Assembly (NCBI GenBank): GCA_000002435.2
Contig: CM018791.1
Direction: 5' to 3' (one strand)
Length of the DNA stretch: 64,000 nt
Origin: Giardia intestinalis
Lineage: Eukaryota
A program made the translations under genes and the position numbers. Shown here piece after piece: positions 22,601-59,911 of this stretch; position 1 is the first letter of the stretch; each line of letters opens with the position of its first letter. The notes under the pieces were generated by a model that ran no database searches, had not been told where the DNA came from, and saw nothing but the letters and a program-made list of their open reading frames with translations.

Positions 22601-23106
22601 TTCCCCGGTCAACGAGGTGCGTCGATGGGCCAACCTGTCCTGGCATGCTGTTTCCCCGGTCAACGAGGTGCGTCGATGGGCCAACCTGTCCTGGCATGCT
22701 GTTTCCCCGGTCAACGAGGTGCGTCGATGGGCCAACCTGTCCTGGCATGCTGTTTCCCCGGTCAACGAGGTGCGTCGATGGGCCAACCTGTCCTGGCATG
22801 CTGTTTCCCCGGTCAACGAGGTATGTCGATGGGCCAACCTGTCCTGGCATGCTGTTTCCCCGGTCAACGAGGTGCGTCGATGGGCCAACCTGTCCTGGCA
22901 TGCTGTTTCCCCGGTCAACGAGGTGCGTCGATGGGCCAACCTGTCCTGGCATGCTGTTTCCCCGGTCAACGAGGTGCGTCGATGGGCCAACCTGTCCTGG
23001 CATGCTGTTTCCCCGGTCAACGAGGTGCGTCGATGGGCCAACCTGTCCTGGCATGCTGTTTCCCCGGTCAACGAGGTGCGTCGATGGGCCAACCTGTCCT
23101 GGCATG
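7690..23106. repeat. 51-bp tandem satellite array, ~79 resolved units on the left + ~40 on the right of an assembly gap; consensus ccaacctgtcctggcatgctgtttccccggtcaacgaggtgcgtcgatggg
   Basis: Period measured directly: 'cgaggt' recurs at 7741, 7792, 7843 (51 bp). Two unit variants alternate: A (...ccaacctgtcctggcatgctgttt...gaggtgcgtcg) and B (...cctagctggcccggagtcccattt...gaggtatgtcg). The edges (7707-8800, 22350-23106) are near-perfect. The interior (8900-11718, 21066-22300) carries many 1-2 bp indels. Right edge at 23106 (ggcatg|atatct). Confidence 0.95.
11719..21065. other. assembly gap (9,347 N) inside the satellite array
   Basis: Uninterrupted run of n from 11719 to 21065, with the same 51-bp repeat on both flanks. 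The true array length is therefore unknown. Confidence 0.98.
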
Positions 23107-25631
23107 ATATCTATCTGAGACTTATCATTACTATACTTAGGTGGCATATTATATGTTCCTTTAACTAGATAATGATTCAGATTAGAAACATTTTGGGCTC
23201 CAATGTCATAATAGCTAGATTGCTGATTCTTTTGATGACTCACTGAATTTTGCATCAAGGAGCAATTGACACCCTTATCAACAAGCACTTGATTAATTTC
23301 GCAAGTAGAACCATTGTGAATAAATGCACCATCGTTTAAATCTCCGCTTAGATTTGTAGACGGATCAGCTAATGATTTAACACTCAAATGCTCCTCTTTC
23401 CATGCTACATGGCTTGATTGCTGGCTTAGGACTTCCGCCTCCCTCTGCGATTCGTACTGCATACTGGGATCTTTGGCTTGTAAAACACTTCTGTTGCTAA
23501 GGTAATTAAGCTCAGGTGTGTAACCACTTAATTGGCGTGTGTTTTCATTTGGCAAAGTATCATACAATGTGCTATCTTTAACAGAGAAAAGAGAGCTGTT
23601 ATCTCCCCTATACCCTTGCTGGTTAGATACGCTTAGCTCCCGAGCGCCGGAGATACTTATGGTATTGTAAGGTGTATTGTCTTCATGAGATAGCTCCTTC
23701 ACAGTCTCGTTTTCTCCCGGTTCTGGGTTAACAAGTGTGCTATAGCTCAAACCCCGTGCATGAGACGCCGTGATGGTAACATCATAAGGTGCTGATGGTG
23801 AAACCTGTGAACGCACGGGAAGATTTGGATCCCAACAATAGCTATGATCATACGGTGATACTGCTGTTAGAGGGGTGTTTATTTCTGACGTACTAATGTC
23901 GGACCTATCTGGCTTCTGCATCAATGTATTCTTATACTCCGTTGTATTATAAGTTGCTCTCTTCGTTTGTCGTGTGTAATCAGTCATATCATGGATTGTC
24001 TCAGCCTTGTCGTCTGGGCGCGCAGGGAATGTGTCTCCTGGCTTTCCGTATGCATAGCTCAGTACGCGGGCGCTTTTTACTAAAATCGGCCCGTCATTTC
24101 TATAAGGCGTGAGCCCCATATCGCTTCCAACTAGATTAGTTTCCATATCAGAAAAGATATCCTTCTGTGTTTTCTCTTTGTAGTCTTTTACGAGTTTATT
24201 CTCGTCTAACAATTCTTCTCTTGTTTGTGCTACCTTCTCCAGTTTATCTTTCCAATAGTTAGCCCATGATATGTCGTCAGAAATAGTGACGGGCAGTGTT
24301 CCTGAAGTAGTACTGAGAACATTCTGTGTGTCTCCAGCCACAATTGCTGTGGGCATTGTAGCCAGCAGTGTTGCATTAGGTGTAAGTGCTATCTTCTTAG
24401 TGTCTTCAGATAACTGTACTTGGTGATCAATTGCGGTTGATTTCCCCGGTTCTATTGAATTACTTACATTCCTAAATAATGTCTGTAAATTGCTTGTTGC
24501 AGCGGCACTATATCCATAGTTCTCTGGGCAGGTATTACTGTAATCGTTAGATTTGAATGTCTGCTGCTGAGACTTTGTCGCTACTAATTGATCTTGTGGA
24601 GCAGGTTTCGAAGAAGCTAAGTTGCCATATTGAGATTGGTGTAATGGGACAGTGATAAGGGGGTCTTGCTGAGATTTCGTCCAGTATGCCGGTGCTTTGG
24701 AAACCTGGCTTCGTAGGCTTTCAAACGCGGAGGGGAGCTGAGGAGGAGGCACGATGGGGCCGTGCTCCTTCAAATAGTCACGGTACACAGACCATGCTTT
24801 ATGTATTCGTGGATGCTTGAGTAACTCATCTGCAGGAGGACGACTCCTGGGGTTATGATCGAGAAGCAGATTAATTATTCTGGTTAGCTCTGCACTGTAG
24901 CCGTGATATGATGTCTTTACAAAGGAACTGAGAGATTGTATGGCTTCCTGCTTGTTGGCACATGTCTCTCTGTACCGGCGAAGCGTGCACATTTCGTGTA
25001 GTACACATCCTAACATGAACATGTCGACCTTCGCCCCATACTTATGCCCCAAGAGCATTTCAGGCGCCATGTAAACATAATCGCCAACCTGTTCAGAGAT
25101 CTCAGACGCCTGACTCAAAGAGACTGCTTGACGCATACCGCCTAAAACACACGCTGTGTTGTTAGACAAGAATATGGTTTCTGGACGTATGTTTCGATGA
25201 ATTACTATTCCGACTTCGGGACAATTCAATTTATAAGGTGAATGTAGGTAGGCAAGCACATCGCAGAGCTGGGCAAGAACCATCCAAATAGTGCTTTCGT
25301 CATAGAGATGCGCAGCCTCAAATCTGTCAACGATTTGCTGCCGTAAGCTCTGGCTTAAATATGCATCCATGAAGACATAGTACGTGTGGCGGAACTGGTC
25401 GTGGAAAACATTATGAATCTGAAGAATTCCTGGGTGCTGAAGTCTCTGTGTTAGTTGATACTGTCGATCTACATGCTCTCGAAGAGTAGTTGCAGATTGA
25501 GTGTAGTCTATAACTTTGCAGACAACGTCGTGTGAGGTCCACGTATCGTGCGCCCAATGAATCCTAGAATGCTGCCCATGGGTAAGAAGAGGCCCAAGGC
25601 GGTACCTATCCATCAGGAGAGTCGTGAGCAT
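22314..25631 (-). CDS. NEK-like protein kinase (probably inactive: HRN for HRD, no DFG), long S/T/N-rich linker, C-terminus reading ~15.5 units into the 51-bp satellite; true 3' end uncertain
   Basis: ATG verified at 25631..25629. N-terminal kinase fold (MDRYRLGPLL...VVCKVID...HRNIRPETIFL...YMAPEML...DMFMLGCVLHEMC). The unique sequence ...KYSNDKSQIDI joins MPGQVGPSTHLVDRGNS repeats at 23106 with no stop. The first stop is at 22314, caused by a repeat variant. Confidence 0.6.
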   Translation of the reverse strand: MLTTLLMDRYRLGPLLTHGQHSRIHWAHDTWTSHDVVCKVIDYTQSATTLREHVDRQYQLTQRLQHPGILQIHNVFHDQFRHTYYVFMDAYLSQSLRQQIVDRFEAAHLYDESTIWMVLAQLCDVLAYLHSPYKLNCPEVGIVIHRNIRPETIFLSNNTACVLGGMRQAVSLSQASEISEQVGDYVYMAPEMLLGHKYGAKVDMFMLGCVLHEMCTLRRYRETCANKQEAIQSLSSFVKTSYHGYSAELTRIINLLLDHNPRSRPPADELLKHPRIHKAWSVYRDYLKEHGPIVPPPQLPSAFESLRSQVSKAPAYWTKSQQDPLITVPLHQSQYGNLASSKPAPQDQLVATKSQQQTFKSNDYSNTCPENYGYSAAATSNLQTLFRNVSNSIEPGKSTAIDHQVQLSEDTKKIALTPNATLLATMPTAIVAGDTQNVLSTTSGTLPVTISDDISWANYWKDKLEKVAQTREELLDENKLVKDYKEKTQKDIFSDMETNLVGSDMGLTPYRNDGPILVKSARVLSYAYGKPGDTFPARPDDKAETIHDMTDYTRQTKRATYNTTEYKNTLMQKPDRSDISTSEINTPLTAVSPYDHSYCWDPNLPVRSQVSPSAPYDVTITASHARGLSYSTLVNPEPGENETVKELSHEDNTPYNTISISGARELSVSNQQGYRGDNSSLFSVKDSTLYDTLPNENTRQLSGYTPELNYLSNRSVLQAKDPSMQYESQREAEVLSQQSSHVAWKEEHLSVKSLADPSTNLSGDLNDGAFIHNGSTCEINQVLVDKGVNCSLMQNSVSHQKNQQSSYYDIGAQNVSNLNHYLVKGTYNMPPKYSNDKSQIDIMPGQVGPSTHLVDRGNSMPGQVGPSTHLVDRGNSMPGQVGPSTHLVDRGNSMPGQVGPSTHLVDRGNSMPGQVGPSTHLVDRGNSMPGQVGPSTYLVDRGNSMPGQVGPSTHLVDRGNSMPGQVGPSTHLVDRGNSMPGQVGPSTHLVDRGNSMPGQVGPSTHLVDRGNGTPGQLGPSTYLVDRGNGTPGQLGPSTYLVDRGNSMPGQVGPSTHLVDRGNSMPGQVGPSTHLVDRGNSMPGQVGPSTALERTSLTGEMGLRAS

Positions 25632-25655
25632 TGAGAGGCAAATTTAAGAATAAAT

Positions 25656-27113
25656 TTACTCATTTTGGATAGCATCATCGACGAATTGAGACATATATGG
25701 TGTTTTGACACTAAATACAGAAGAATCAAGCCAATTTCTTTTCAAGATAGGCGATGCTTGAGCAGAATTGTTGTCTTGTTCTATTGTTCTAGTATGGTTA
25801 TCCTGGCCACCATCAAAATAGGCCATAGTATTAGATTGACGTATGGCTTGCAAAGTGTGATCATCGGCAGAGCTACATGATTGAATTTTATGCTGCTCTT
25901 TATCTTGAACGAAGTCCTGTACGATTGGTCTAAGATGACTAGGGCTCTGCTTCCTTTGTCGTTTATGCTTTAATGCATGCGATTGCTGCTTGTTGATCAG
26001 TAAGCTATCATCAAGAATAGAGCAACCACGCTTCTCTTCAAAGTCAAGAAGCAGAATATCATTGTAACGCGCCACGTAGTGAGCCTTGATGTTCGCAGCA
26101 GAGCCAGCTGAAGCACTTGCAAGCTCGGAAGACTCGTGGCTTTCAATGCTTGCTTGCGTGCACAAGAGATTGATGGACGAATCATCGTCTGCATGAACAC
26201 TACAAAACTGAGCATCCTGTGGCTGTAGCTCTTCTTCCTTTTCCTCTTCTTCTGTAAGCCCGTAAGTCCCCAAGCGAGCCTTATATGATTGAATCATTTC
26301 GCGAATAATTCCGTTAACAGATAGCACATCAACTGCTAGGCGGCATTCAGGCTCTAGTTCTAGGAAGGTGTTTATTATAGACGTCAAACTAGTGGAGTAC
26401 AGGGGCATCTGCACCTTTCTCTGCAGCTTTCCTAGCTTTTGTAAGGCATCCATTGGGTTTAGTGCAAGACAGAAAGGCCTAAACGTACAGAGTTCATATA
26501 TTATGCAACCCAAAGACCAAATGTCAGATTTTGTAGTAGCAACCCCTGTCCGCAGTAGCTCCGGTGCTCTATACTCTGCTGTGTGCACAGGAAAGCACTT
26601 GTAATACATGAGCTTGCGGGAGAGACTCAGAAAGCTCACAGTAATGATATCTAAGTTATCGATAAAGATAGATTCTGGTGTCAATGCATAAAGTAAAGCC
26701 TGGTCATGATTGGGCCCAACATCGTGTAGATAAGATAGAAGATCAATGAACTGAGATAGTATATACCAGACGCTCCGTTCTGGAAGGTGCGAGCCCCGAT
26801 CCAGAGCCTTTCGGCGTCTGATGTATTGACTCAGGGTCTCCTGCTTAACTTGCTCCATAAACAGGAAGTAACGTTGACCAGCACGATCATGCAACACGCT
26901 GAGATAATGAACAAGCAGAGGGTGTCGAAGCCGCTTAATTAGAGCAACCTCTCTGTGGAGCACAGCGGCCTCATGTGGAGACAGCCGACCGTACTCATAA
27001 ACCTTACAGAGACATGACTTCTGAATGCGTAGATCCGCTGCTTCGTATATTATGCTGTAGGAGCATGCCTTGAAGGGTTTTCCAAGACAAAACCTGTCGA
27101 GAATTCTAATCAT
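25656..27113 (-). CDS. NEK-like kinase paralog (pseudokinase-like; HRD and DFG absent)
   Basis: Track start 27209 is TTG. The frame upstream of it hits a stop at 27269..27267 with no ATG. The first ATG is 27113..27111, giving MIRILDRFCLGKPF... like the other paralogs (M..RY.L...G). Kinase C-lobe SDIWSLGCIIYELCTF is present. Confidence 0.7.
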   Translation of the reverse strand: MIRILDRFCLGKPFKACSYSIIYEAADLRIQKSCLCKVYEYGRLSPHEAAVLHREVALIKRLRHPLLVHYLSVLHDRAGQRYFLFMEQVKQETLSQYIRRRKALDRGSHLPERSVWYILSQFIDLLSYLHDVGPNHDQALLYALTPESIFIDNLDIITVSFLSLSRKLMYYKCFPVHTAEYRAPELLRTGVATTKSDIWSLGCIIYELCTFRPFCLALNPMDALQKLGKLQRKVQMPLYSTSLTSIINTFLELEPECRLAVDVLSVNGIIREMIQSYKARLGTYGLTEEEEKEEELQPQDAQFCSVHADDDSSINLLCTQASIESHESSELASASAGSAANIKAHYVARYNDILLLDFEEKRGCSILDDSLLINKQQSHALKHKRQRKQSPSHLRPIVQDFVQDKEQHKIQSCSSADDHTLQAIRQSNTMAYFDGGQDNHTRTIEQDNNSAQASPILKRNWLDSSVFSVKTPYMSQFVDDAIQNE

Positions 27114-27214
27114 TAATTCTAACCGTTTTTTGATCCTTTGATTCAAGTCAGAGCCCGCGGACGAGCTGCAAACAGACAGCGAAATAATTACGCTCACTAC
27201 CCTCCACAAACAAC

Positions 27215-28354
27215 TTAGTCGGCAAGAATTGTCCCTGGAGCAGTTAGTATCGACGACGTACCATGTTCAGACGACACTGTGGGGATACGCTTTGACCTTT
27301 CTGATGATGTTAGCCCAAACTGGGACACCAGCTCTCGATTTAACGTACAGCAGTTTCCCACTGGCTTCCCACAAACACAAAGAAGATCATGTTGGATCTC
27401 ACTGGAGAGCATTGGAGATTGAGCAGGTTGTGTCTTCCGTAGTGCTTCGTTATGAGAAATGACCCGCCTATACGTTCTCCATATATCGCAGACTGTATTC
27501 AGCTTCAAGATTTGCTTTGCATAGATACGCTGGCTAGGCTCTGGAGCAAGCATCTGAGAAAGAAGCGAGATTATATTGGCATCTTTACCGGTCAGTAGAG
27601 GGTCACTTTTGAAGGAGGGCGGTGCTGAGATGGAGTGTAGAATCTCTGACAAGCACGTCCCTTGAATGTACGGCACTCCGAGATAGAACTCATACATGAA
27701 GCATCCTAAGGACCAGATGTCTGAAGCCCACGTAGCTTGCTTACCCATCAAGATCTCTGGAGAAAGGTAGCGGGCGGTATTTGCAGACTGGCAATCAACG
27801 TTATTCGTTTCAATGTATTTGGACATTCGTATCTGTGCCACCGTTACCACTCCCAGATTATCCAGATAAATGCCAGCAGGGTCTAGAGAGCGCAGAATGA
27901 CTGTACTGATGTCCGGTGCATTTCTCTTAGACGGACTATGAAGATAAGCAAGAAGTTCCGCCAATTGCATCAGGACGAGCCAAAAGGTCTGCTTACTTGG
28001 GCTGGAAAATGTAGGGAGCTGATAGCTTCCTGTTCCAAAACGTAACCGTTGGTGCATCTTTAAACTATCTGTGCGCATGTCCTTCATGACCAAAAACGAT
28101 GAACCTATAGAGTCTCCCTCAGCTATCTCCAAATATTCCATCAAATTTGGATGTCTAAGTGTGCGCGTCAGTGATATATTCAAGTGCAACTGCGAGAGCA
28201 ACGAGAGTGAGAGCTTTGAGTAAATCAATCTCTTACACACACACGGTCTATAAGTATACCGATCAACAGCTAAATATAGAAACCCATGAGCTGTCTTCTG
28301 GCAAACGCTCCCCAGCTCGTACCGTTTCCCTATTACGATGCTAGTTTTCATCAT
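27215..28354 (-). CDS. NEK-like kinase paralog (pseudokinase-like) with C-terminal CVCGKPVGNCC cysteine motif
   Basis: ATG ATG verified at 28354..28349. IGKRYELGSVCQKTAHGFLYLA...CVCKRLIY...SDIWSLGCFMYEF. No HRD/DFG motifs. Confidence 0.7.
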   Translation of the reverse strand: MMKTSIVIGKRYELGSVCQKTAHGFLYLAVDRYTYRPCVCKRLIYSKLSLSLLSQLHLNISLTRTLRHPNLMEYLEIAEGDSIGSSFLVMKDMRTDSLKMHQRLRFGTGSYQLPTFSSPSKQTFWLVLMQLAELLAYLHSPSKRNAPDISTVILRSLDPAGIYLDNLGVVTVAQIRMSKYIETNNVDCQSANTARYLSPEILMGKQATWASDIWSLGCFMYEFYLGVPYIQGTCLSEILHSISAPPSFKSDPLLTGKDANIISLLSQMLAPEPSQRIYAKQILKLNTVCDIWRTYRRVISHNEALRKTQPAQSPMLSSEIQHDLLCVCGKPVGNCCTLNRELVSQFGLTSSERSKRIPTVSSEHGTSSILTAPGTILAD

Positions 28355-28418
28355 CTGCCCACACAGTTTTTGAAAACCGTAGGCTTAAAGCATTAACAAG
28401 GGATCAAAACAAATATCT

Positions 28419-30206
28419 TTACTGCATACTAGATTGAATAGATGAGATGTGCATAGATGACGGTTGTTCTCTATACCTATTGGGTCTGCCCTCATAAACG
28501 TCTGCTGGTTGCACAGAATTGTAAGAAATCTGTGCCTTGTATGATTGAATAGGGGAAGTGGCGACAGATTGCTTAAGAAAGTTGGGGCTGCAATGCACAG
28601 CATTGTGCTGTGTTGATGGCTTAACGAGTTTTCTAGCACTTGGGTGCAAATGCTGAGAAGATATGAATCCGTGTGTGTTAGGAGGAATGATCCTGTCTCG
28701 AATGAGCTCTAAGGATGGAACATCAGTTATAATATCCTGAAGCGTTACTGGAGAAGGCGTTCCAACCCCCTGATCACACATGTACTGATCCTGAATGGCA
28801 GGTTGATGCATAGTCTCAGGCTTATCGTCGACAGTGATTTCCTGAGAGTGCCTGCTCGGGAATGAAGACTGTTGTACCGGCTGTTCGTTCATTGATACCG
28901 AGCCACTTGAAGAAAAGCTAGCAGTGGGACTGAAACTAGAGATAGAGCTGCCTTGAAGCAGGTTTGCATTGTCGCTAAAGACTGATGGTTGCTCACTTAT
29001 CTGATTATACTGGATAGGGCGCCTAGCTCCGAGGGGCCGCGTGCGTGGCTCTGCAAACACTTTGCTGAGCATGTAGCGACGATGATGCCCTTTGCCCTGC
29101 TTAGATATCCAGTTGTTAACAATAGTGTAAGTATTCCCAGATGAATTTGCAACACGCGTATAGGAAACATTATGTGAATACGGGGGTTCTGCAGCAAGTT
29201 TCTTTAGGTACCGGCGATAGCCACAGCAATCGTCCATATTTCCTCCACATGCACAGGTACTCATTCGGGCTATACGTGGTTTGCGCTTATAGTAATGGAC
29301 CCGCAAGAGCTCCTTATATGTAATCATTAGCTCAGCTATTGGGGGGCGTGCAATAAGGTCATCGGTGCTGGGCCGCCTTTCTGGGCGTGGATTCAAAAGG
29401 TCTGTAATGAAGTCTGACAACTTTCTTGAATACTTAAACTTTGTGTTTGCTGGATTGGTTGTTAGTTCAACCGTTATGTTGGGAGGTGCAAGACTTAGTT
29501 CTAGCACTTGCTGTCTTGTCCAGCCAGTAACATATGGTCTGCGCATGCATAGCTCAAAGAGCGTTGCGCCTAGTGACCAGATGTCCATAGTGTGGAAAGG
29601 CCTAGCACCTGCTAAGAGCTCTGGGGCATTATAACAAGGGGTCTCGTAGTCAGCTGACTCCGGAAATATATCAAAACGTGCTAGTCGAACTGTGTCCACG
29701 AGAACAAAGCCCATTTCGCTAATATATATGCAAGACGGCCTCAAATCCAGGAGAACTTTGTCTTTTGTGGCTGTCTGAGATGAGTAGTCTGCCAAGAACT
29801 TAATGAGTTGAGTGGCGATCATCCAAATGGTGTCTTCGGAGAAAAAGAAGTCGTCCATAATAGCAGTATCCAACTGGGTTCGCAGGTCTCCGTACTTATG
29901 TAGATCTACAAGAGCAGCAAGGTTTCCACCTTTTTGGTCCAAGACTACGCTGCTGTATTTCATCTGTCCCGGAAATGTAGATTTCTGGGCCAAGGCTGCT
30001 TCGTAACGAATGAGCTCAATCTGGTGGCTTGTCAGCTTTGCAAGTGGAAACTTCTTACAGCTAAATTGCCGCTGCGACGTGATGTCTTTCATACAGAATA
30101 TGTGTGAGTATTTGCCACGAAAAATCTCAGACTCTTGCCGATACCTTCCTAAGAGAAGTTGGTCCTCGGCAGCAGGCTGTGTGGCAGGATAGTTGACTGC
30201 TAACAT
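28419..30206 (-). CDS. NEK-like kinase paralog (pseudokinase-like) with CACGGNMDDCC motif and S-rich tail
   Basis: ATG verified at 30206..30204. LLGRYRQESEIFRGKYSHIFCMKD...SCKKF...DIWSLGATLFELC. Confidence 0.75.
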   Translation of the reverse strand: MLAVNYPATQPAAEDQLLLGRYRQESEIFRGKYSHIFCMKDITSQRQFSCKKFPLAKLTSHQIELIRYEAALAQKSTFPGQMKYSSVVLDQKGGNLAALVDLHKYGDLRTQLDTAIMDDFFFSEDTIWMIATQLIKFLADYSSQTATKDKVLLDLRPSCIYISEMGFVLVDTVRLARFDIFPESADYETPCYNAPELLAGARPFHTMDIWSLGATLFELCMRRPYVTGWTRQQVLELSLAPPNITVELTTNPANTKFKYSRKLSDFITDLLNPRPERRPSTDDLIARPPIAELMITYKELLRVHYYKRKPRIARMSTCACGGNMDDCCGYRRYLKKLAAEPPYSHNVSYTRVANSSGNTYTIVNNWISKQGKGHHRRYMLSKVFAEPRTRPLGARRPIQYNQISEQPSVFSDNANLLQGSSISSFSPTASFSSSGSVSMNEQPVQQSSFPSRHSQEITVDDKPETMHQPAIQDQYMCDQGVGTPSPVTLQDIITDVPSLELIRDRIIPPNTHGFISSQHLHPSARKLVKPSTQHNAVHCSPNFLKQSVATSPIQSYKAQISYNSVQPADVYEGRPNRYREQPSSMHISSIQSSMQ

Positions 30207-30688
30207 CTAGCCTTGAACTCTGTGTGTCCACTGCAGAGACTGTGCTAATTTAAAAACTCTTCAGGCTATTGGGGTTACAGAGTTTGTTTTTGAAACACAG
30301 ACCTAGCTTACAACGTAGAGTAACAACCACTCGCCTACAGCTAGGTCGTTTTCATTTACTTCACATAAAACGGTCAACCTAAAGAAGCAGAATAATTTAT
30401 ATAAATTAAACTAAGAGTTTTTAATCCGCTCAAGATACACCCAAAGGTACAGCTTATGCATAACCTGTAACTATAATTAAGAATACACAACAATACATGC
30501 GTTGAGAGCTACCCGTTTTGGTCGAGATTGTCTGATTTGATAGTAGCTTCGTAGCAATCTTCGCAATGATTTAAAATTTTGCCTGCGTGCTAGTGCTTAT
30601 GATGACATAGGTTCACCATAGCCTTGCTTCTATCAAGACAGGAGATGTCACAGTGTTCGTACCGCACAGTAAAAAGCGCTGACAAGAC

Positions 30689-32290
30689 CTAGCCACCACC
30701 CTTGAGAGTGTGACTAGATCGCACATGCTGTATTGGGGACATTTCCACCACTACCGGAGAAACTGACTTCTGCGAGTGCCGACGACTCTGTTGTCGGTCA
30801 TTTTCATAGGATACTGACTCTAGGACAACAGGATCTTTTGAATAATGAAACGTCTTCTGGCCGGCATACATTAGGCTGTCAACAGATGGGTGAGGCCGTA
30901 ATGACATCGAAAAACCCTGAGTGTCTGGAGACACCTTTTTGTGCTGCAGAACATTGTCGAACGACTCCTTGACAGATAGAGATTGTGTGTTAGGGTCATT
31001 TGTCCTATCACTCTTTGGAAGAGAGTCGGTAGTAGCCCCCTTCCAGTACCTTCTGTCAAAAGGAGAAAAGTTTCTAACATCATCGTCACGATACACGTTA
31101 CTTCCTTTGTTGTCGCCTGTGCATCCATGCGGAAGGCTGAAATCCATAATGCTATAGTCGTTTTTAGCGTGTATTTTCGGATCTTTATTCATGGCTGTAA
31201 CAGTTAGCTGAGACTTAGAAGAAGATATTGGCTCCATAGGCCGTGTCTCAACGTGCCAAGTAGCAGCTCCTTTCTTCAGTGACTCTAGGGGTACTTGCCT
31301 ATCTGTGTGGTCGGCTAGACCATAAGAAAGTGCCTCCGCCGCGTCTGCGTAATTCCTGTGCACAAACGTTGGACAAAAACAATCTGTTTGAAGATCACAG
31401 CATACCTTTCCGTTTCCGCCACAGGAACATACTCCGTTCCCGGCACACACAAGCATTTCTTTATAATGCTGCAACGTGGAATTCTTTAGTAAGTATTCCG
31501 GAGACGCTCGACTGCTCGCTATGGGATCCAGCATAGTACTAAGCAGATCCTGCATCTCACGTGAATATCCCCTCAGGTTAAAGGTTGGTCTCGCATCTTT
31601 AATAAGCCCAAACAGCTCGCTGACATCCAGCAGCTCATAAAGAGGCCGCAAAGTACACATTTCATACGCAATGCAGGCCACAGACCATACATCTGACTTG
31701 ATAGACCAGTTCTTGCCCCCAATTACTTCTGGCGCATGATAGCACGGTGTAAGCTTTGGTTTATTTGTCCGAAAGTGTTCATACTTACCTAGATGAAAGC
31801 GATGGAGCTGAAAAATACCGTATTTGGAGACAAATATATTATCAGGGCGAATAACGTAATTGTGTGGACAAGAGAGGCTCTCGATATTAGAAGAACCGTG
31901 CAGAAGCACAAACAAGTCTAGCATAGAGGCCAAAAATATCCAAATGCTTGCCTCCTCAAATGGCTTCTGTATTGTTTTCCGGTGCCTAATTTGCTCGTAG
32001 AGGCTCTGTGATTTATAGTAAGGCATAACAGCAAAATAGCCAGCCCACTGCTTTTCGAAAAATGTATCCAAATAGGGCACGAGATACTTATTCCTGAGGC
32101 TGCGGGCCATGAGAAGTTCCGCTTGAAAGGCTCGAGCCAACTCCTCTGTGGGTAAAGGAAGAACAAACTTCTTGACAACCACGGGCCCCGCTTCCTCCTG
32201 CGTACTATCCACTGCAAGCATGATGACAGAACAGCGAGACCGCGCAATTTGCCCGAGAATCTCATAGCGATTGGAAAGGACGGGGTGCAT
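30689..32290 (-). CDS. NEK-like kinase paralog (pseudokinase-like) with CSCGGNGKVCC motif
   Basis: ATG verified at 32290..32288. SNRYEILGQIARSRCSVIMLA...VVKKF...SDVWSVACIAYEMCTLRPLY. Confidence 0.75.
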   Translation of the reverse strand: MHPVLSNRYEILGQIARSRCSVIMLAVDSTQEEAGPVVVKKFVLPLPTEELARAFQAELLMARSLRNKYLVPYLDTFFEKQWAGYFAVMPYYKSQSLYEQIRHRKTIQKPFEEASIWIFLASMLDLFVLLHGSSNIESLSCPHNYVIRPDNIFVSKYGIFQLHRFHLGKYEHFRTNKPKLTPCYHAPEVIGGKNWSIKSDVWSVACIAYEMCTLRPLYELLDVSELFGLIKDARPTFNLRGYSREMQDLLSTMLDPIASSRASPEYLLKNSTLQHYKEMLVCAGNGVCSCGGNGKVCCDLQTDCFCPTFVHRNYADAAEALSYGLADHTDRQVPLESLKKGAATWHVETRPMEPISSSKSQLTVTAMNKDPKIHAKNDYSIMDFSLPHGCTGDNKGSNVYRDDDVRNFSPFDRRYWKGATTDSLPKSDRTNDPNTQSLSVKESFDNVLQHKKVSPDTQGFSMSLRPHPSVDSLMYAGQKTFHYSKDPVVLESVSYENDRQQSRRHSQKSVSPVVVEMSPIQHVRSSHTLKGGG

Positions 32291-32312: not shown

Positions 32313-33782
32313 CTATTTATCCAACCAACGTTTATAATGGCGTACCCCGTCGCACCCAACACGGTCCAGATACCACTCCCCACAAGAAAAATGCTCTCTA
32401 TCACCCGTTATGTATTCATCCGTCTCTGGCTTTACCTGTTGGCGAAACCTGTCTTGAAGAAATTCTTGCACGAGCGGATCCTGGGATAGTCTGTGCATCA
32501 GCAAGCGCTTGTTAGATTGTAACGACAGCCGAAGCATACCTTCTGATGGAGGGGCTGCAACGCGTTTGATTTTGAGGACACACGGCATCTGGTTGGGGTA
32601 CACAGAGAACTTGAAAGCCAGAGATCCCATTCCTGATCCATATCCTGATGCATATATTAGATACTCGTCTTTGAGAGGCGTACGATAGTGTGTAGGGGAA
32701 GCAGTTGCAACCTGACTGGCGGCAATGGCTTCTATGTGCTCCAGGATAGAGACGAGGGCCAAGAAAATGCTCCCCGTATATATGTTGCCTGTTTGACTCG
32801 AAAGTTTGAGAGACGGCACACACCTCCGTTCACAGTCCTCTGATATAGAAGGATCGGCAAGACAGTTCTTACTGAGCACACTGAGCACGTTGCTATCTCT
32901 TGATTGTATTGCTGCAAAGAGTTCATCTTCCTTATCAGACTCCAGATGCAGCGCGTGATAGAGCAGTGCGTGCATTTTCTTTGGAAGGGTGCAATATGGA
33001 GTATGAAAACATGCGAAGTCTGCGTCTAGAAAGAGTCTACGCTGCTGCTCATTACTCATTGCTGCTAGTAAATTGGCACGTAAGTAACACTCAATAGACG
33101 TTGCCCCGTGGACTACTGGAACTGGCGAGGCTATATGTGGCTTATAGAAGTCTGTGGTGTTTTCCCAATAACTATTGAATGATGCATCACACACTATACC
33201 ACTAGGATAATCCTTTACCAACAGCAGAGCGACAGCACCAGCCCCACCTGTAGGAATTGAAGCAATATCATTGTAAATTGAGATATCCGTTGTGACAACA
33301 ATTGCAGCCGGGTACTTGTTTGTTTCGTCGTCATACTTAGCTGCGGATAGCCATAAAGCAGCGTTTTCCAGAGCTAGGACACCGCCTAGACAAGCATTGA
33401 TTATATCGGCGCCTGTGGTTCTAACGGCACCCAGCATGTCCGCAAGGACCGACTTAATAGATTTAGCCTTGTCAACAGATGACTCGGTACCCACCTCAAG
33501 TCTACCTATAGTGACCTTTGAAAGAATATCTTGAGTAGCCTTATCATCAATCAAAAGTTGCAACGAATTCAGAGCTAAGGATACAGAGTCTTCGGAGTCG
33601 ACAGTAACTGCCATCTGATGCTGCCCAAGGCCTTTAGTTATCTTCTCTAAGGGAATCTTGCAAAGAGAAGAAACCTCCTCCTGAGACACTACTATTGGTG
33701 GGATGTACACGGCTATTGCAGCTATTCTTACTTCAGCCGGCGGTTGCAAAGGTGCATGTTCCACATGTGTATCCCTTGACAT
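32313..33782 (-). CDS. hydroxymethylglutaryl-CoA synthase (mevalonate pathway)
   Basis: Track start 33824 is TTG; the first ATG is 33782..33780. Matches to eukaryotic HMGCS signatures: GRLEVGTES, ADIINACLGG (NACYGG site), PTGGAGAVALLL, DFYKP, VHGATSIECYL, FHTPYCTLPKK. Confidence 0.85.
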   Translation of the reverse strand: MSRDTHVEHAPLQPPAEVRIAAIAVYIPPIVVSQEEVSSLCKIPLEKITKGLGQHQMAVTVDSEDSVSLALNSLQLLIDDKATQDILSKVTIGRLEVGTESSVDKAKSIKSVLADMLGAVRTTGADIINACLGGVLALENAALWLSAAKYDDETNKYPAAIVVTTDISIYNDIASIPTGGAGAVALLLVKDYPSGIVCDASFNSYWENTTDFYKPHIASPVPVVHGATSIECYLRANLLAAMSNEQQRRLFLDADFACFHTPYCTLPKKMHALLYHALHLESDKEDELFAAIQSRDSNVLSVLSKNCLADPSISEDCERRCVPSLKLSSQTGNIYTGSIFLALVSILEHIEAIAASQVATASPTHYRTPLKDEYLIYASGYGSGMGSLAFKFSVYPNQMPCVLKIKRVAAPPSEGMLRLSLQSNKRLLMHRLSQDPLVQEFLQDRFRQQVKPETDEYITGDREHFSCGEWYLDRVGCDGVRHYKRWLDK

Positions 33783-33870
33783 GACCTTGCTCCAAAAGCA
33801 ACAATTATTTACCCTACCGCGCAAACTTTAAGTGTGCGCACATTAATTGCTATTGCTCATCAGAGCTGTG

Positions 33871-36540
33871 CTACGAGACATCGCACAGACAGATGCTATT
33901 TTCCGCTATTGGCTCGGCGTATTCCATTACCTCAGACTCTATATATACCGCAAATGGTATTTTCAGGGAGCCTTCATCGATGGGTAAATCGTAGTCTGCG
34001 CCATTAGGTTCTACATCATAGCTTAAGTCCTTAATATAGTACGGAGGCATTGGTAGTGGTTGTTGACAAGTTGATGATAAGTTGTCCAGGGGAGCGGGGG
34101 CAGCAAGGGGCTCCTCCGCGCTCTCCTCGCACTCCGGGGTGGCGGCCCTCTGGTAGCTCTCGTCCTTCGCCGGGTCCAGGGGAGCGGGGGCAGCAAGGGG
34201 CTCCTCCGCGCTCTCCTCGCACTCCGGGGTGGCGGCCCTCTGGTAGCTCTCGTCCTTCGCCGGGTCCAGGGGAGCGGGGGCAGCAAGGGGCTCCTCCGCG
34301 CTCTCCTCGCACTCCGGGGTGGCGGCCCTCTGGTAGCTCTCGTCCTTCGCCGGGTCCAGGGGAGCGGGGGCAGCAAGGGGCTCCTCCGCGCTCTCCTCGC
34401 ACTCCGGGGTGGCGGCCCTCTGGTAGCTCTCGTCCTTCGCCGGGTCCAGGGGAGCGGGGGCAGCAAGGGGCTCCTCCGCGCTCTCCTCGCACTCCGGGGT
34501 GGCGGCCCTCTGGTAGCTATCTTCGCAGTATTTTGCAGCTAAGACAGAAGGCTCATCTCTGACCTGTTCAACTGTAGTAACAGTTTCTATAACCTCATAG
34601 CGGTTATAAATGTATTTATCATCAGTCTTTTCAGAAGGTGTTCCAGCCTGTCCTTCTGCTTCATACAAATCTCCCTCAGTAATAGGCGTTGGTTCCACCT
34701 TTGATGTAGCAGGCATGTGGTATGTGGTGTTTAATACTTGTCCATTCTCATCATAAATGGCTTTATCGCTAGCATTACTGTTCATCAATTCTGCTTCTTC
34801 TTCTCTTGAAATAATCTTTTTAAGAGGCATCGGCAAACTGCTTTCCCTGGTGGTCACTGGCTCTTCCTCACGCGCGAATAGAACAGGCTTTGTATTCGGT
34901 CGAGTATTAGTGGAATATCCAACTATACTCTTAGAAACATAGTTGGGTTCAATAATCGGATGTATGCTCTTGTCTGAATCTCCACAATAAAATTCTGGCA
35001 AGGGCTGGCAATAGGATTTGAAGCATGTCATAGAGCGTTTTTGGGTCATGCTGTCCCGATCATCTACCTGGTACGCTTCCCAGTCATCAGATGTAGGATA
35101 GACAGGCACTATCACCAAAGTTTTTCGTTGCTCGTTGACAAACTTTAAAATAGTGCCAAAGTCCAAAAGAGTGTCTTGCTCTGCTGTTATGGCATCCAAC
35201 AGCTGCTGAGGAGTCAGAAGAGGGACGGGAAGATCAGTAATATTAGTGTAACAGCCCTTTAGAGCATGAAGATGGGCATCCCAGCAGATTGGCAAATCAT
35301 CTCCAGCAAACACGGCATCAGCTTGTAACCCCAAAAGAAAGTAAAGGGATACGTCCTCATCGGACAAAGAGGACGTACGTGCTACACTGCTACATACCAG
35401 GTCACTGTCTAGAGGGCCTTGATCAACTCCATTCCGTGGGTGCTTCTGGTCGTACAGATCAAACAAGTCGCCAGTCTCATCACAGTTTATACATTGATCA
35501 TAGAAGATGTTAACAACTTCTTGTATCTCCGGAAGAGTCATCTCAGGCATAAACTTGAGAATCGCAAACACAAGTGCCGTTGTTTCCCGTGTATAGAAGC
35601 ACTCTTGTTTTAGATACATAAACCACGAATCCTCTGCCTTGTCTGATATTTTGATATTCGGGAGGCAGACAGGCTTGTCACAAAGAAACCTGCACGCGTT
35701 GGCAAGAGATGATAACTGAATGGTCAGCACTTTAAACTTAGTAAGAAGCTCAGTCAAGGCCTTTCTGCTGCCTTTCCCCGAACTCAGAAGAGCAGCCGTC
35801 TCATTCTTACAGATAATCCGCTCTTGAAGTAGCGTCCTAAAGAGTTTGCGGTATTCTAAAAGCGTATGCATCCTCTTTTGATACTCAACCGTGAGCGTAG
35901 AGCTTCTGTTGAGCTGAGAATACGCATAATCACGCTCTGAATAGGGGATTTCAAGAGCCTCCCACATACGAGTGAGTGATGCAACAGCATTGTGCGCCCT
36001 CAGAGCCATGGATGCCCCTTGGCCCGTCCTTGGCAAGAATTGGTTCCCACTTCGGGAGACAAGAGAGGTAGAGCCCCGATCCTTTGTCATGAACTTCTCT
36101 GACTTGTTGAGATTGTCTGTATCGTTATAGTATCGTGTCTGTGGGGAACAAATGCGTTCCAAATAAGGAGAATATTCCACCTGCTGCTCGGTAACAGACG
36201 CTTTTGGACTCCCGTGGCCATGCTTTGTAGATTTACGATAAGATTTGATGTCTGTATTTGGAGACTTTTGTAGTGGGCGGGTAATGGAGCGTGAGCGGAC
36301 ATTTGCCATGGTTGCCCCTTCTAGGTGCTTGCTCTGAATGCGGAGCATCTCTGCTTGCGACACACCTCGCTCCGTAGTCTTGGCCATCTCGACAATCCGG
36401 GCATTGTTCGGATTTGAAAAGAATGCCTTGAGGTGGGGGTCGCTTTCTGCATGGTATGACGGTGGTCTGTCACCAATTCTAGTGGTAAACTCTGGCTGCA
36501 ATCTTTCGCGTCGCGGTGCGCGGTGGTCAACAAAGCTCAT
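33871..36540 (-). CDS. coiled-coil protein, paralog A of the 58227..59714 gene; contains 5 x 30-aa acidic tandem repeats; weak MAP65/Ase1/PRC1-like WxxLxIPxxER motif
   Basis: ATG verified at 36540..36538. Blocks shared with paralog B: MWEALEIPYSERDYA / LWKALDIPPLERNYA, SGKGSRKAL / AGKGSKSVL, YFLLGLQA / NFLLGLQA, LLTPQQLLDAI / LLSPEQILDAV, LVIVPVYP / VVLVPVIP. Confidence 0.6.
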   Translation of the reverse strand: MSFVDHRAPRRERLQPEFTTRIGDRPPSYHAESDPHLKAFFSNPNNARIVEMAKTTERGVSQAEMLRIQSKHLEGATMANVRSRSITRPLQKSPNTDIKSYRKSTKHGHGSPKASVTEQQVEYSPYLERICSPQTRYYNDTDNLNKSEKFMTKDRGSTSLVSRSGNQFLPRTGQGASMALRAHNAVASLTRMWEALEIPYSERDYAYSQLNRSSTLTVEYQKRMHTLLEYRKLFRTLLQERIICKNETAALLSSGKGSRKALTELLTKFKVLTIQLSSLANACRFLCDKPVCLPNIKISDKAEDSWFMYLKQECFYTRETTALVFAILKFMPEMTLPEIQEVVNIFYDQCINCDETGDLFDLYDQKHPRNGVDQGPLDSDLVCSSVARTSSLSDEDVSLYFLLGLQADAVFAGDDLPICWDAHLHALKGCYTNITDLPVPLLTPQQLLDAITAEQDTLLDFGTILKFVNEQRKTLVIVPVYPTSDDWEAYQVDDRDSMTQKRSMTCFKSYCQPLPEFYCGDSDKSIHPIIEPNYVSKSIVGYSTNTRPNTKPVLFAREEEPVTTRESSLPMPLKKIISREEEAELMNSNASDKAIYDENGQVLNTTYHMPATSKVEPTPITEGDLYEAEGQAGTPSEKTDDKYIYNRYEVIETVTTVEQVRDEPSVLAAKYCEDSYQRAATPECEESAEEPLAAPAPLDPAKDESYQRAATPECEESAEEPLAAPAPLDPAKDESYQRAATPECEESAEEPLAAPAPLDPAKDESYQRAATPECEESAEEPLAAPAPLDPAKDESYQRAATPECEESAEEPLAAPAPLDNLSSTCQQPLPMPPYYIKDLSYDVEPNGADYDLPIDEGSLKIPFAVYIESEVMEYAEPIAENSICLCDVS
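34080..34525. repeat. five near-identical 90-bp tandem repeats inside the paralog A CDS, encoding KDESYQRAATPECEESAEEPLAAPAPLDPA
   Basis: 'ggagcggggg' recurs at 34091, 34181, 34271, 34361, 34451 (90-bp period = 30 codons). Diverges at ~34518. The alternative-frame ORFs 34023..34466, 34031..34492 and 34050..34562 are artefacts of it. Confidence 0.9.
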
Positions 36541-46569: not shown

Positions 46570-47991
46570 ATGTCCAGTGCAGAGTTTAGTGTCACGAGTA
46601 CCACTTCAGGCAGCGCCTTTCAGTACTCGGCAGTCGTCCCTACCATCATTGTCTCTAGATTCGATTACAATAACTGCTGGGCCGAAATAGACATCCTGCA
46701 AAGCGTTTATGAAGATGATGGCGCCATGGACATTAATGTCAAGCCGCTGTATTGTGATATTCCAGCAGAAGCCAAGCTCTATGCCATTTTCCGTATCTCC
46801 GAAGTCGAAACAGCCACATTTCCATTGGAGCCTCAGAGCACGAGGGCAGGTGGATATGCTCCTCTAGCCTCAGAATACATACACACCAAGGCACAAACTT
46901 TTAAGATAAATTGCAGCACCATCTCTTCGTCCCCTGCGTCTAAGCAGAAAATGACAACTGCTGAATGCACTCGGATCTTCCGCACCTTTATTAGCTATCC
47001 CTATCACCTGGCACGCCTGGGCGCCTCCTTCAGCTTCACCAATTCAAGCTCCACGGGCGGTGTTGTGGTGATGCAACCCTCCACAAATCTGCGCGACAAC
47101 TCAACAGCTCTTTGTTTCAGCACCGCATCTGTGCGGCTTTACAGAGACAAGATCTGCATGGAACTTAGAGCGCCCACCGCGGAGTCCTCAGCGTGCACGT
47201 TGGCTGGAGACGTAAAAAGCACCTACTTTTACTTTAGCTTATCAAACAATGTTGATCCGTTCTACGCTAGCGTGAAGTGCTACTATACACGACTGGATCC
47301 TGATTTCACGTTTAACACATCCGTTAGGAGCCGGTACTGGTATACTTGTAAAGATAAGACGTGCAAGGATACGTTCGCGTCCATAATCGACCACCGCAAC
47401 ACCTCTGTCGCCAAGTACGGCGTCTACATGACAAACTTGGCTGGTCAGGAAGTGAAGCGCTTGCTCTTCACCGCTCATCCCCCCAATGTTACTTGCTTTG
47501 CCGACATGTATGCCGAGGTGATGGATGACACCCTCTGCATACATGCTACCTTGCCGCCGAACGAAGACTATTGCAATATCCTGGAACTCCCATCCACCAC
47601 AACGTTCAGAGTCAAGCTCTGGTACACTGCCGGTTCCGGAATAGAGTCTGCCAGTGTCAGTTTAGCCGGTGAATTCAAATATACCGGTGTCTTCGCAAAC
47701 TTACTATGCTTTACATGCTCCAACAATTGGGTTCCAAACGACAAGTATTTCAATGGCAAGTACTGCAGCTCGCAGCTCTCCTTTATCAAGTCACAATATA
47801 AGAAGCTGCACTCCTACATCACCGTCGAGATAGACGATATTGTAGAGGTCCCCGACAATGTCTATTTTCTTGATAACAGGGGCCTTCTCATAACTTCTTT
47901 GGTTTTGGCGTTGATTAGTGTAATTGTAACCGTAACAATTGTTACGTTGGAGTTCTTGCAGATTTGTAAAAAGAAGGGGCGCGGAAAATGA
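46570..47991 (+). CDS. cysteine-containing membrane protein with single C-terminal TM and basic tail, hypothetical
   Basis: ATG at 46570. About 18 Cys, including YTCKDKTCKD and LLCFTCSNNW. C-terminal TM LLITSLVLALISVIVTVTIVTL is followed by EFLQICKKKGRGK*. Convergent with the VSP. Confidence 0.5.
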   Translation: MSSAEFSVTSTTSGSAFQYSAVVPTIIVSRFDYNNCWAEIDILQSVYEDDGAMDINVKPLYCDIPAEAKLYAIFRISEVETATFPLEPQSTRAGGYAPLASEYIHTKAQTFKINCSTISSSPASKQKMTTAECTRIFRTFISYPYHLARLGASFSFTNSSSTGGVVVMQPSTNLRDNSTALCFSTASVRLYRDKICMELRAPTAESSACTLAGDVKSTYFYFSLSNNVDPFYASVKCYYTRLDPDFTFNTSVRSRYWYTCKDKTCKDTFASIIDHRNTSVAKYGVYMTNLAGQEVKRLLFTAHPPNVTCFADMYAEVMDDTLCIHATLPPNEDYCNILELPSTTTFRVKLWYTAGSGIESASVSLAGEFKYTGVFANLLCFTCSNNWVPNDKYFNGKYCSSQLSFIKSQYKKLHSYITVEIDDIVEVPDNVYFLDNRGLLITSLVLALISVIVTVTIVTLEFLQICKKKGRGK

Positions 47992-48566
47992 TCTCTGTCT
48001 TGTGAGTGGCAATTCCATTAAGAAAGCTTACCCTTTACTTGTGGTTGACCCCGGAAGCTCCGCGCTATCACAGTAGTGGTCAATATATAATTGTAGACAC
48101 TCACTGCTCCATGATGGAGAGCACTGTATCGGTAGGGTTGCCGGTTCTTGCACAATCGGCAACCACATCTTTGAGGCACCGATCCCAGCAGTCCATAACG
48201 ATGACGATGGAGTGGGCGTCTCTGAGCACCTGGTAGTGCCTAATGACGCCTGGGTGTGAGCGTCTGGAAATGGTGACCAGCGCGACCCAGTGGCCTCCGT
48301 GGGCTTCCCACTCTGAGCTTTGGATAGCTACCTATCACATGGACAGTACCAAAGCTGCCCACATCAAGCACCCCTCCTCGCATCGATGCAGCTCGTCGGC
48401 GGGCACAGGATATCGAGTGCACCGTCCCCGGCCATGACGGTATCAACGGCACTGTGCAGAGCACGCTCGGGGGCAGGGGAGCGGCCACCCCTGCTCCCGG
48501 TTGCAGGCTGGCTGGCGAAGTATACGAGGCGCACCCGCTTGTCGGCAGCTGCACCACTAGTGACGC

Positions 48567-48573
48567 GTTTACT
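48567..48573 (-). promoter_or_regulatory. putative polyadenylation signal AGTAAAC two nt after the VSP stop (TAG GT AGTAAAC)
   Basis: + strand gtttact at 48567-73 is AGTAAAC on minus, immediately 3' of the TAG stop (48584..48582). Matches the Giardia AGTRAAY consensus. Confidence 0.5.
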
Positions 48574-48581
48574 ACCTAAGT

Positions 48582-50489: not shown

Positions 50490-51149
50490 TGTGGCTCGAC
50501 GCTCTGTCACACAGAGATATAGCAGCTCCGTTCGCCAGTCCACCCCTTCATGGCATCTGCCTGTGCTGCATGACGCACTGGCAGGGAAGGCCCTCCACAG
50601 GCCTGCGGAGAAGCGGAGTCGTATCGATTCCACTCTTATGACCTGCCGCTCCGAGCTTCTGTGACTGGCCGGCTGTGAGATGGATTGATCAGTATAGGTC
50701 TCCCCCTTATGCTGCAAGGCGTACCATAGTAGTGGCTACACGGCGGCCATGCTTCGCTCTTCGCTGTGATGTGAGGGCTTCCATTGGCGTCAGCGACAGG
50801 CGGAGCTGGCTCGTCCTATCCCAGTCCTGTAGTGTCACGTAATCCCTAATCCGTCGGAACTTTCGGCACCATACGGCATATGGCTGCCCAGCCACAGAAA
50901 GGGTCGTCTTAGCGGTAGGCCGTAGGTAGGATGCACAGGAGCAGGCCTACACTCGCCCCAGAATCTATGTGCTAGCTTCGGTGGCCTCGCACTCTGCACA
51001 CCAGGCCGCTCCCGTCTAAGCGCGGCCAAAGTGAAAGCTGGGTCGAGAGGGGTCTATTCGCTGACCGCTGGACCGCGCCATCCGGTGGGCCCAGTAGTAC
51101 AACACACCGTGACAAAGTGAATCCAGCCCACCGGACCATTTAAAAAACT

Positions 51150-55898: not shown

Positions 55899-55954
55899 GC
55901 CACACCATATGTCAATAAGTGAATGGCTGCTTGGAAATCATTTCTGTTATAAAA

Positions 55955-59714: not shown

Positions 59715-59911
59715 TAAAAAGTTTTTGAGGACAGGTTTTAAAGGATAGTTTGGGCAGTTATAGCTGGAGCTGATGCGTGGCAACCTACCCTTGTCAACCC
59801 TTTCATTACTAAAATGTGTTTGCCATTCTCCATATTATCAATTTTAAAGTATTGATACAATGCGCAGATAAGACCCAAATTCACTTCTGAGTATAGAGGG
59901 GGGTTACGTTG

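Follow-up and report, generated by a model that had tools for sequence, protein, structure and literature searches.

Genes A and B of Giardia intestinalis assemblage A (isolate WB), located on a 64,000-nucleotide stretch of contig CM018791.1 (GenBank assembly GCA_000002435.2; hereafter the window), encode two members of a protein family that, judging from profile searches, is restricted to diplomonads and comprises at least eight paralogue groups predating the split between Giardia muris and G. intestinalis. The defining element of the family is a domain of ~310 amino acids for which no relative was detectable in Pfam, among PDB sequences or among PDB folds, and on balance we favour the interpretation of these proteins as a lineage-specific, probably non-enzymatic scaffold family. 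A preliminary description of the window had presented the two genes as a pair of coiled-coil proteins, each flanking an array of NEK kinases and each carrying a motif possibly related to that of the MAP65/Ase1/PRC1 microtubule cross-linkers. In the databases, both A and B are annotated as 'hypothetical protein'. The two genes and the parts of their products are located as follows:

33871..36540, minus strand: gene A, GL50803_16230 (GL50803_0016230; XP_001704165 / KAE8302706), stop codon included; 889 aa, exact match
36004..36540, minus strand: gene A, N-terminal tail, residues 1-179; by composition pI 10.0, net charge +11, Ser/Thr/Pro-rich
35056..36003, minus strand: gene A, family-defining domain, residues 180-495; profile match to residues 184-490
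35932..35964, minus strand: gene A, MAP65-like motif WEALEIPYSER, from pattern search and structure model
33874..35055, minus strand: gene A, C-terminal tail, residues 496-889; pI 4.1 (4.13), net charge -52; outside the family-profile match
34084..34518, minus strand: gene A, tandem repeat within the C-terminal tail, 90 bp, 4.8 copies, 100% matches (Tandem Repeats Finder)
58227..59714, minus strand: gene B, GL50803_61043 (GL50803_0061043); 495 aa, exact match
58527..59459, minus strand: gene B, family-defining domain, residues 86-396; profile match to residues 90-391; 33% identical to the domain of A
59388..59420, minus strand: gene B, motif WKALDIPPLER, from pattern search

The ATG start of gene A is backed by the conserved N-terminus of its G. 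muris orthologue. For gene B the first ATG lies at 59714, and the TTG start listed at 59783 is an artefact of the bacterial code used by the program that listed the open reading frames (ORFs). The 90-bp repeat in gene A encodes the 30-residue unit ESYQRAATPECEESAEEPLAAPAPLDPAKD, and its copy number varies between isolates, whose proteins accordingly measure 889, 799 or 769 aa.

A family of paralogues in diplomonads

BLASTP aligns A and B in one collinear alignment of 307 aa with 34% identity and 55% positives (E = 1e-49). The five collinear sequence blocks on which the two genes had been described as paralogous are all present and are nearly or fully invariant in the nine Giardia orthologues aligned, and the similarity in the BLASTP alignment extends far past them. 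On the basis of their sequences we consider it certain that A and B are true ancient paralogues. Calling them a pair, however, proved too narrow, as they represent two of the ancient paralogue groups of the family. In a distance tree, A groups with GMRT_13072 of G. muris, to which it is 55% identical, and B with GMRT_10388, at an identity of 39%; the identity of 33% between A and B corresponds to about the same distance as that from A to several other paralogues; A and B therefore do not stand out as a special pair. Since each of them has its own G. muris orthologue and the two share a stretch of chromosome in both species, the duplication that gave rise to them is older than the split between G. 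muris and G. intestinalis.

The domain alignment of the Giardia A and B orthologues served as the family profile in an exhaustive HMMER search, run for one iteration, of 1.84 billion representative proteins. This search returned 22 proteins at E <= 1e-3, of which 13 reached E <= 1e-30; a word-indexed search matched only orthologues from other G. intestinalis assemblages. B was retrieved with E = 1.3e-160 and A, by way of the 99%-identical cluster representative P0001, with E = 3.3e-148, followed by the G. muris orthologues with E = 2.2e-98 and 8.5e-70, and in a local hmmsearch profile positions 1-302 were covered in both A and B. As A and B contributed to the profile, independent support for the family comes from their BLASTP alignment and from the matches to the other 20 proteins. 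Every named match is a hypothetical protein of a diplomonad (Giardia, Spironucleus or Hexamita), and nine further matches stem from read-archive or metagenome assemblies. G. muris contributes eight paralogues (GMRT_13072, GMRT_10388, GMRT_12751, GMRT_11566, GMRT_12827, GMRT_14149, GMRT_10298 and GMRT_12301), and a further member in G. intestinalis is GL50803_16504. Within the 64-kb window itself, tblastn found no third family member beside A and B.

In Spironucleus salmonicida the members SS50377_18423 and SS50377_18424 are encoded by adjacent genes, and a protein of Hexamita inflata (P0040, 577 aa) carries two tandem copies of the domain at approximately residues 12-262 and 300-577. Both the double domain and the adjacent genes suggest that the module has been duplicated locally more than once, and the double domain in addition fits a module that is autonomous. 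No Pfam domain was found in A, in B (hmmscan, E <= 0.1) or in 20 full-length relatives; four Pfam matches in the Spironucleus protein P0058 contain no significant stretch and are located in repeats.

A and B both show the signature blocks W..L.IP..ER.YA, G(K/R)GS(R/K), FLLG, LL(T/S)P and VPV...E.Y in this order, and the blocks are found again throughout an alignment of 26 family sequences. In this alignment E23 and Y41 are invariant, and the conservation of R62, R105, P111, F151, G225, E275 and P300 reaches 90% or more. The conserved positions look structural: they include no cluster of His, Cys, Asp or Ser of the kind seen in catalytic sites, and the proteins lack any signature of catalysis or nucleotide binding, which is the reason why we consider the family to be probably non-enzymatic.

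What is new here is a protein family and its fold, not a novel type of biological system. Giardia has many orphan families, and the fact that A and B could not be assigned to a known family is by itself unsurprising. Other hypothetical proteins of Giardia are likewise lineage-restricted, lack recognisable domains, combine a folded core with long low-complexity tails and carry no annotation other than 'hypothetical'. Unlike these, the family described here is delimited, with its set of paralogue groups, a profile of ~310 aa, a confident structural model and orthologues in four diplomonad species. If this description holds, the domain would be a previously undescribed module of which at least eight copies have been kept since before the two Giardia species separated, and its members would offer defined targets for tagging and knock-down within the unannotated part of the Giardia proteome, which amounts to ~40% according to PMC13322205.

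Predicted fold and the MAP65-like motif

A first AlphaFold2 run, based on the Giardia A and B orthologues only, reached a pLDDT of 49.8 and was discarded. With the 26-sequence family alignment as input, the domain was modelled with a pLDDT of 88.0 and a pTM of 0.83, and 239 of its 316 residues reached a pLDDT of at least 90. The modelled domain consists of ten helices and two short C-terminal strands that form one packed unit, interrupted by a disordered loop at domain residues 179-209. Its N-terminal three-helix part opens with the W..L.IP..ER.YA block, whose motif extends from the end of helix 1 (residues 2-16) over the turn at the IP dipeptide to the start of helix 2 (residues 21-33). The longest helices in the model, residues 35-75 (41 residues) and 80-108 (29 residues), form an intramolecular hairpin with the conserved GKGSR of the G(K/R)GS(R/K) block at its tip, and the C-terminal helices that follow end in the two strands, which carry the VPV...E.Y block. 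The label 'coiled-coil' given to both proteins previously is thus not borne out by the model, which predicts a packed multi-helix domain with an intramolecular hairpin, although the prediction was made for the monomer and no dedicated coiled-coil predictor was run.

A Foldseek search of the model against the PDB gave no match below E = 0.57, with TM-scores of at most 0.23 among the 50 matches listed, and a search against BFVD, a collection of viral structures, gave no match. Partial likeness is found to generic antiparallel three-helix bundles and hairpins such as the Habc domains of syntaxin-6 and Vti1b, the CHMP4B hairpin and spectrin-type repeats. In contrast to these, the family domain has ~200 further residues that remain unmatched, and it shows no sequence relationship to any of them.

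The known family to which a likeness had been proposed is MAP65/Ase1/PRC1. The likeness of the motif itself stands: WDRLQIPEEER of human PRC1 fits the same pattern, W-x-x-L-x-I-P-x-x-E-R, as WEALEIPYSER in A and WKALDIPPLER in B. In order to compare whole profiles, the 26-sequence family alignment was aligned by hhalign to a PRC1 profile, which was built from 12 aligned mammalian PRC1 sequences only (Neff 1.6). The comparison yielded a probability of 15.8% (P = 0.0016) and a score of 32.5 over 85 columns, placing family columns 7-92 on PRC1 residues 240-335 with LWDRLQIPEEER at the centre, and the second and third alternatives land on the other two copies of the motif in PRC1. Since the score exceeds that of a reversed control (15.3) as well as those of 30 column shuffles (maximum 20.5), the local likeness to PRC1 is not random. 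When the 17-residue motif was deleted from the family profile, the best score dropped to 21.5 (P = 0.057) at an unrelated place, which is noise level, so the similarity to PRC1 amounts to the motif alone. The motif pattern has a probability per position of 3.5e-7, or ~21 bits, and ~1.7 chance matches are expected over 24,736 Pfam families of ~200 residues; chance alone should thus produce a likeness of this kind to one known family or another.

It had been suggested on the strength of this motif that the two proteins might belong to the MAP65 family, in which case A and B would be highly diverged homologues of MAP65/Ase1/PRC1 that dimerise and cross-link antiparallel microtubules of the spindle, the median body or the disc. 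The family and the cross-linkers do have in common the short helix-turn-helix signature, the above-control local profile match and a largely helical structure, and the exact fit of the pattern to the PRC1 motif speaks for such a relationship. Other results speak against it. No member matched PF03999 even at E <= 10 when first 8 and then all 26 were tested, while all PRC1 sequences fetched as controls carry this domain. A and B hold exactly one copy of the motif each, and every relative at most one, as opposed to three in PRC1 (WDRLQIPEEER, WELIGIPEDQR and WDQCFYSQEQR) found by the same pattern search. The C-terminal tail, which in the MAP65 family is disordered, basic and rich in Lys and Arg and contributes to microtubule affinity, is acidic in A and B (pI 4.1 and 4.4), and MAP65/PRC1 proteins form a long dimeric rod with a spectrin domain, in contrast to the packed ten-helix domain with two strands that is predicted here. 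In the structural comparisons, the PRC1 structure 3nrx_A ranked 47th of 721 generic helical matches, and PRC1 was absent from the 50 Foldseek matches listed. In essence, then, neither a significant match to PF03999 or to the mammalian PRC1 profile nor a specific structural similarity to the MAP65 rod domains was found. The results of hmmscan, hhalign with its shuffled and reversed controls, motif deletion, motif count, tail charge and fold rank led us to reject membership in the MAP65 family, and true homology of A and B to these cross-linkers appears very unlikely. Labelling the proteins 'MAP65-like' would wrongly imply that a spindle-midzone cross-linker of Giardia had been found.

Charged tails and candidate functions

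Most members of the family carry tails on both sides of the domain, a basic N-terminal one rich in Ser, Thr and Pro and a C-terminal one that is acidic and often repetitive. The N-terminal tail has this character, with a pI of 10-12, in 16 of the 18 members that possess one. Most C-terminal tails are acidic with a pI of 4-5, and their net charge reaches -52 in A, -9 in B (pI 4.39), -101 in the G. muris orthologue of A and -133 in SS50377_18423 of Spironucleus. In P0024 and GMRT_12751 the C-terminal tails are neutral or basic, and the two smallest members consist of the domain alone (323-328 aa).

Several short peptides are conserved within these tails. The N-terminal peptide FTTRIGDRPPSYHAESDPHLKAFF of gene A (residues ~18-42, window positions 36400..36490) is conserved in the A clade, where the pattern FTTR(I/L)..(R)PP.Y....DPHL..F(F/W) is common to A, GMRT_13072 and the high-GC relatives P0023 and P0027 within an otherwise divergent tail; it is probably a short binding motif specific to this clade. 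The 30-residue repeat of gene A and an unrelated 29-residue repeat of the G. muris orthologue P0021 have an (S/Q)RAATPE core in common. Of the seven (S/T)-P sites in the tail of A, five have the form R-x-x-(S/T)-P; the corresponding counts are 7 of 15 for GMRT_13072 and 10 of 15 for GMRT_14149. These sequences may be sites of proline-directed phosphorylation. Near the C-terminus of gene A (window positions 33920..34010) a motif of the form (N/D)G..YD(L/I)(P/A)I(D/A) occurs as NGADYDLPIDEG; it is also found at the extreme C-terminus of GMRT_14149 (P0036; DGTQYDIPIDL) and of P0035 (NGNSYDIAIAVP).

In the reading that we favour, the helical domain would probably act as the protein-binding module of a non-enzymatic adaptor or scaffold. 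For its WxxLxIPxxER motif, the most likely role is that of a structural helix-turn-helix cap and not of a microtubule-binding signature inherited from MAP65; similar helix caps can arise independently. The oppositely charged disordered tails would probably supply multivalent contacts, which may be regulated by phosphorylation, for instance in the RAATPE repeats of A.

Several points weigh against this scaffold reading or limit its reach. The argument for a non-enzymatic family, drawn from the absence of motifs, is weak. The novelty of the predicted fold holds relative to solved (PDB) and viral (BFVD) structures only. The restriction to diplomonads was obtained with a single iteration of a Giardia-only profile, and a broader profile might reach other metamonads. 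The residual likeness to PRC1 above the controls (P = 0.0016) might in principle mean that the first helices go back to a very distant common ancestor. Finally, neither A and B nor GL50803_16504 nor the G. muris and Spironucleus identifiers appear in any main text searched, and A, B and GL50803_16504 are absent from the accessible parts of the supplements of the ventral-disc proteome (PMC3243723), of the localisation atlas of 608 proteins (PMC13322205) and of the proteome annotation based on structures (PMC6312909). A GlActin pull-down screen (PMC8552679, supplementary table 3) records GL50803_16504 in its complete list before filtering, with spectral counts of 0/0/6 and 2/5/1, and A and B are absent from that list; these counts show that the GL50803_16504 protein is expressed, and little more.

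As to the cellular partner of such a scaffold, our leading guess, and a tentative one, is a lineage-specific cytoskeletal structure. The proteins could form a set associated with microtubules or the cytoskeleton but unrelated to MAP65, with the basic N-terminal tail binding the acidic surface of tubulin and the domain docking on a diplomonad structure such as the axonemes, the median body, the disc or the funis. Tails of the kind found at the N-terminus are typical of many microtubule-associated proteins, the named members all come from diplomonads, which share an elaborate cytoskeleton with eight flagella, and eight retained paralogues would suit several distinct structures. Weak matches of a cytoskeletal flavour were also obtained, to a KIF20A fragment (E = 0.02), to the kinesin-associated DUF3490 (E = 0.09) and, by Foldseek, to axonemal doublet proteins (E ~1-2), but all of these are below significance and typical of the noise seen with helical sequences. 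The absence of A, B and GL50803_16504 from the accessible supplements of the ventral-disc proteome and the localisation atlas argues against a cytoskeletal role as well, and nuclear proteins have basic tails just as typically; even as the leading guess, this role remains doubtful. A more elaborate version, in which a diplomonad invention took up a MAP65-type W..L.IP..ER helix cap, by deep descent or by convergence, within a new ~310-aa fold, and in which the eight paralogues act as dedicated linkers of microtubule organelles (spindle, median body, disc and axoneme-associated structures) and as putative stand-ins for canonical MAP65/PRC1, we consider unlikely.

Less probable still is a nuclear or chromatin-associated family, where the basic N-terminal tail would serve as nuclear localisation signal or nucleic-acid binder and the acidic C-terminal tail would bind histones or other basic proteins in the manner of acidic-tail chaperones. 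A basic N-terminus combined with an acidic C-terminus is a charge layout common among nuclear and nucleolar acidic proteins, and the very acidic, repetitive C-terminal tails of A and of its G. muris and Spironucleus relatives would agree with it. On the other hand, the Pfam scans of A, B and their relatives revealed no DNA-, RNA- or histone-binding domain, and as the C-terminal tails of some members are neutral or basic and other members lack tails altogether, the tails do not define the family.

The kinase neighbourhood and other features of the window

The kinase genes near A and B, together with the gene that separates A from its array, are located as follows:

22314..32290, minus strand: A-side array, five NEK-like kinase genes, from Pkinase matches
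32313..33824: HMG-CoA synthase gene, between A and the kinase array
52980..58075, plus strand: two NEK-like kinase genes, convergent with B, from Pkinase matches

The statement that each of the two genes flanks a NEK array is accurate for B, which adjoins the two-gene array in convergent orientation across a gap of 151 bp, but not for A, which is separated from its array by the HMG-CoA synthase gene. The kinases are indeed NEK-like, as the best solved relatives of the two tested out of seven (55919..58075 and 30689..32290) are NEK2, followed by NEK7 and NEK1. Pairwise identities between the kinases range from 23 to 32% without any pairing of A-side with B-side genes, and the orientations of the arrays relative to A and B differ; for these reasons a joint segmental duplication of a NEK array together with a family gene was rejected.

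Comparison with G. muris allows the linkage of A and B to be separated from their proximity to kinases. On one side of the A orthologue the order is as in the window, with genes for asparagine synthase, CAF1, a myotubularin-related protein and PRK, and then a kinase. On its other side there is neither an HMG-CoA synthase gene nor a kinase array; the kinase closest to the A orthologue lies at a distance of five genes. Immediately after the B orthologue comes a signal-peptide-peptidase-like gene, with a weak kinase match two genes further, and the family member GMRT_11566 lies two genes upstream of the B orthologue. The A and B orthologues are ~50 kb apart on G. muris CM016925.1, compared with 21.7 kb between A and B in the window. 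As the orthologues thus share a stretch of chromosome, the linkage between A and B is ancient, while the adjacency to NEK genes looks incidental.

The adjacency could alternatively be functional, with A and B serving the NEKs next to them as substrates or regulators or being co-expressed with these kinases. The short distance between B and a NEK-like gene, the position of A one gene from a five-gene array, the NEK-like character of these kinases and the synteny in G. muris of the one kinase beside the PRK gene are in line with such a link. It is opposed by the G. muris arrangement, where the A orthologue has no kinase array on the corresponding side and the B orthologue adjoins the signal-peptide-peptidase-like gene with only a weak kinase match beyond, and by the finding that neither array is a duplicate of the other. 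Giardia is reported to encode ~200 NEKs (kinome study of Manning et al. 2011), so that chance adjacency would be common. Moreover, the +1 position of the repeated R-x-x-T-P sites in A is a proline, which NEKs are not known to prefer. A functional link to the NEK genes is accordingly the least probable of the alternatives considered: the cytoskeletal role stands first among them, a nuclear family with acidic tails second, homology to MAP65 behind it and the NEK link last.

The window holds several other features. A 51-bp satellite occupies 7707..11675 (~80 copies) and recurs at 21066..23106 (~40 copies), with a gap of N from ~11719 to 21066 in between. Each unit has the length of 17 codons and is free of stops in several frames, and the array extends over the 3' end (22314..23106) of a kinase ORF of 1105 aa at 22314..25631. 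Giant ORFs at 11076..21653 and on the opposite strand were dismissed as artefacts of the N-run in the assembly gap.

Between the myotubularin-related and PRK genes, which are adjacent in G. muris, the window carries at 46570..50717 a 473-aa ORF without Pfam match and a VSP gene (48582..50717; PF03302, E = 9e-85). With its gene for a variant surface protein, this segment has the look of an insertion specific to the lineage.

At the end of the window (63750..64000) lies a 66-bp tandem repeat that is 65-70% similar to a multi-kb repeat at the syntenic G. muris locus (L002:3400-6500), where the repeat sits between GMRT_11566 and the gene adjoining the B orthologue. From this likeness, a third member of the family, similar to P0026 (599 aa), is probably located just past the end of the window.

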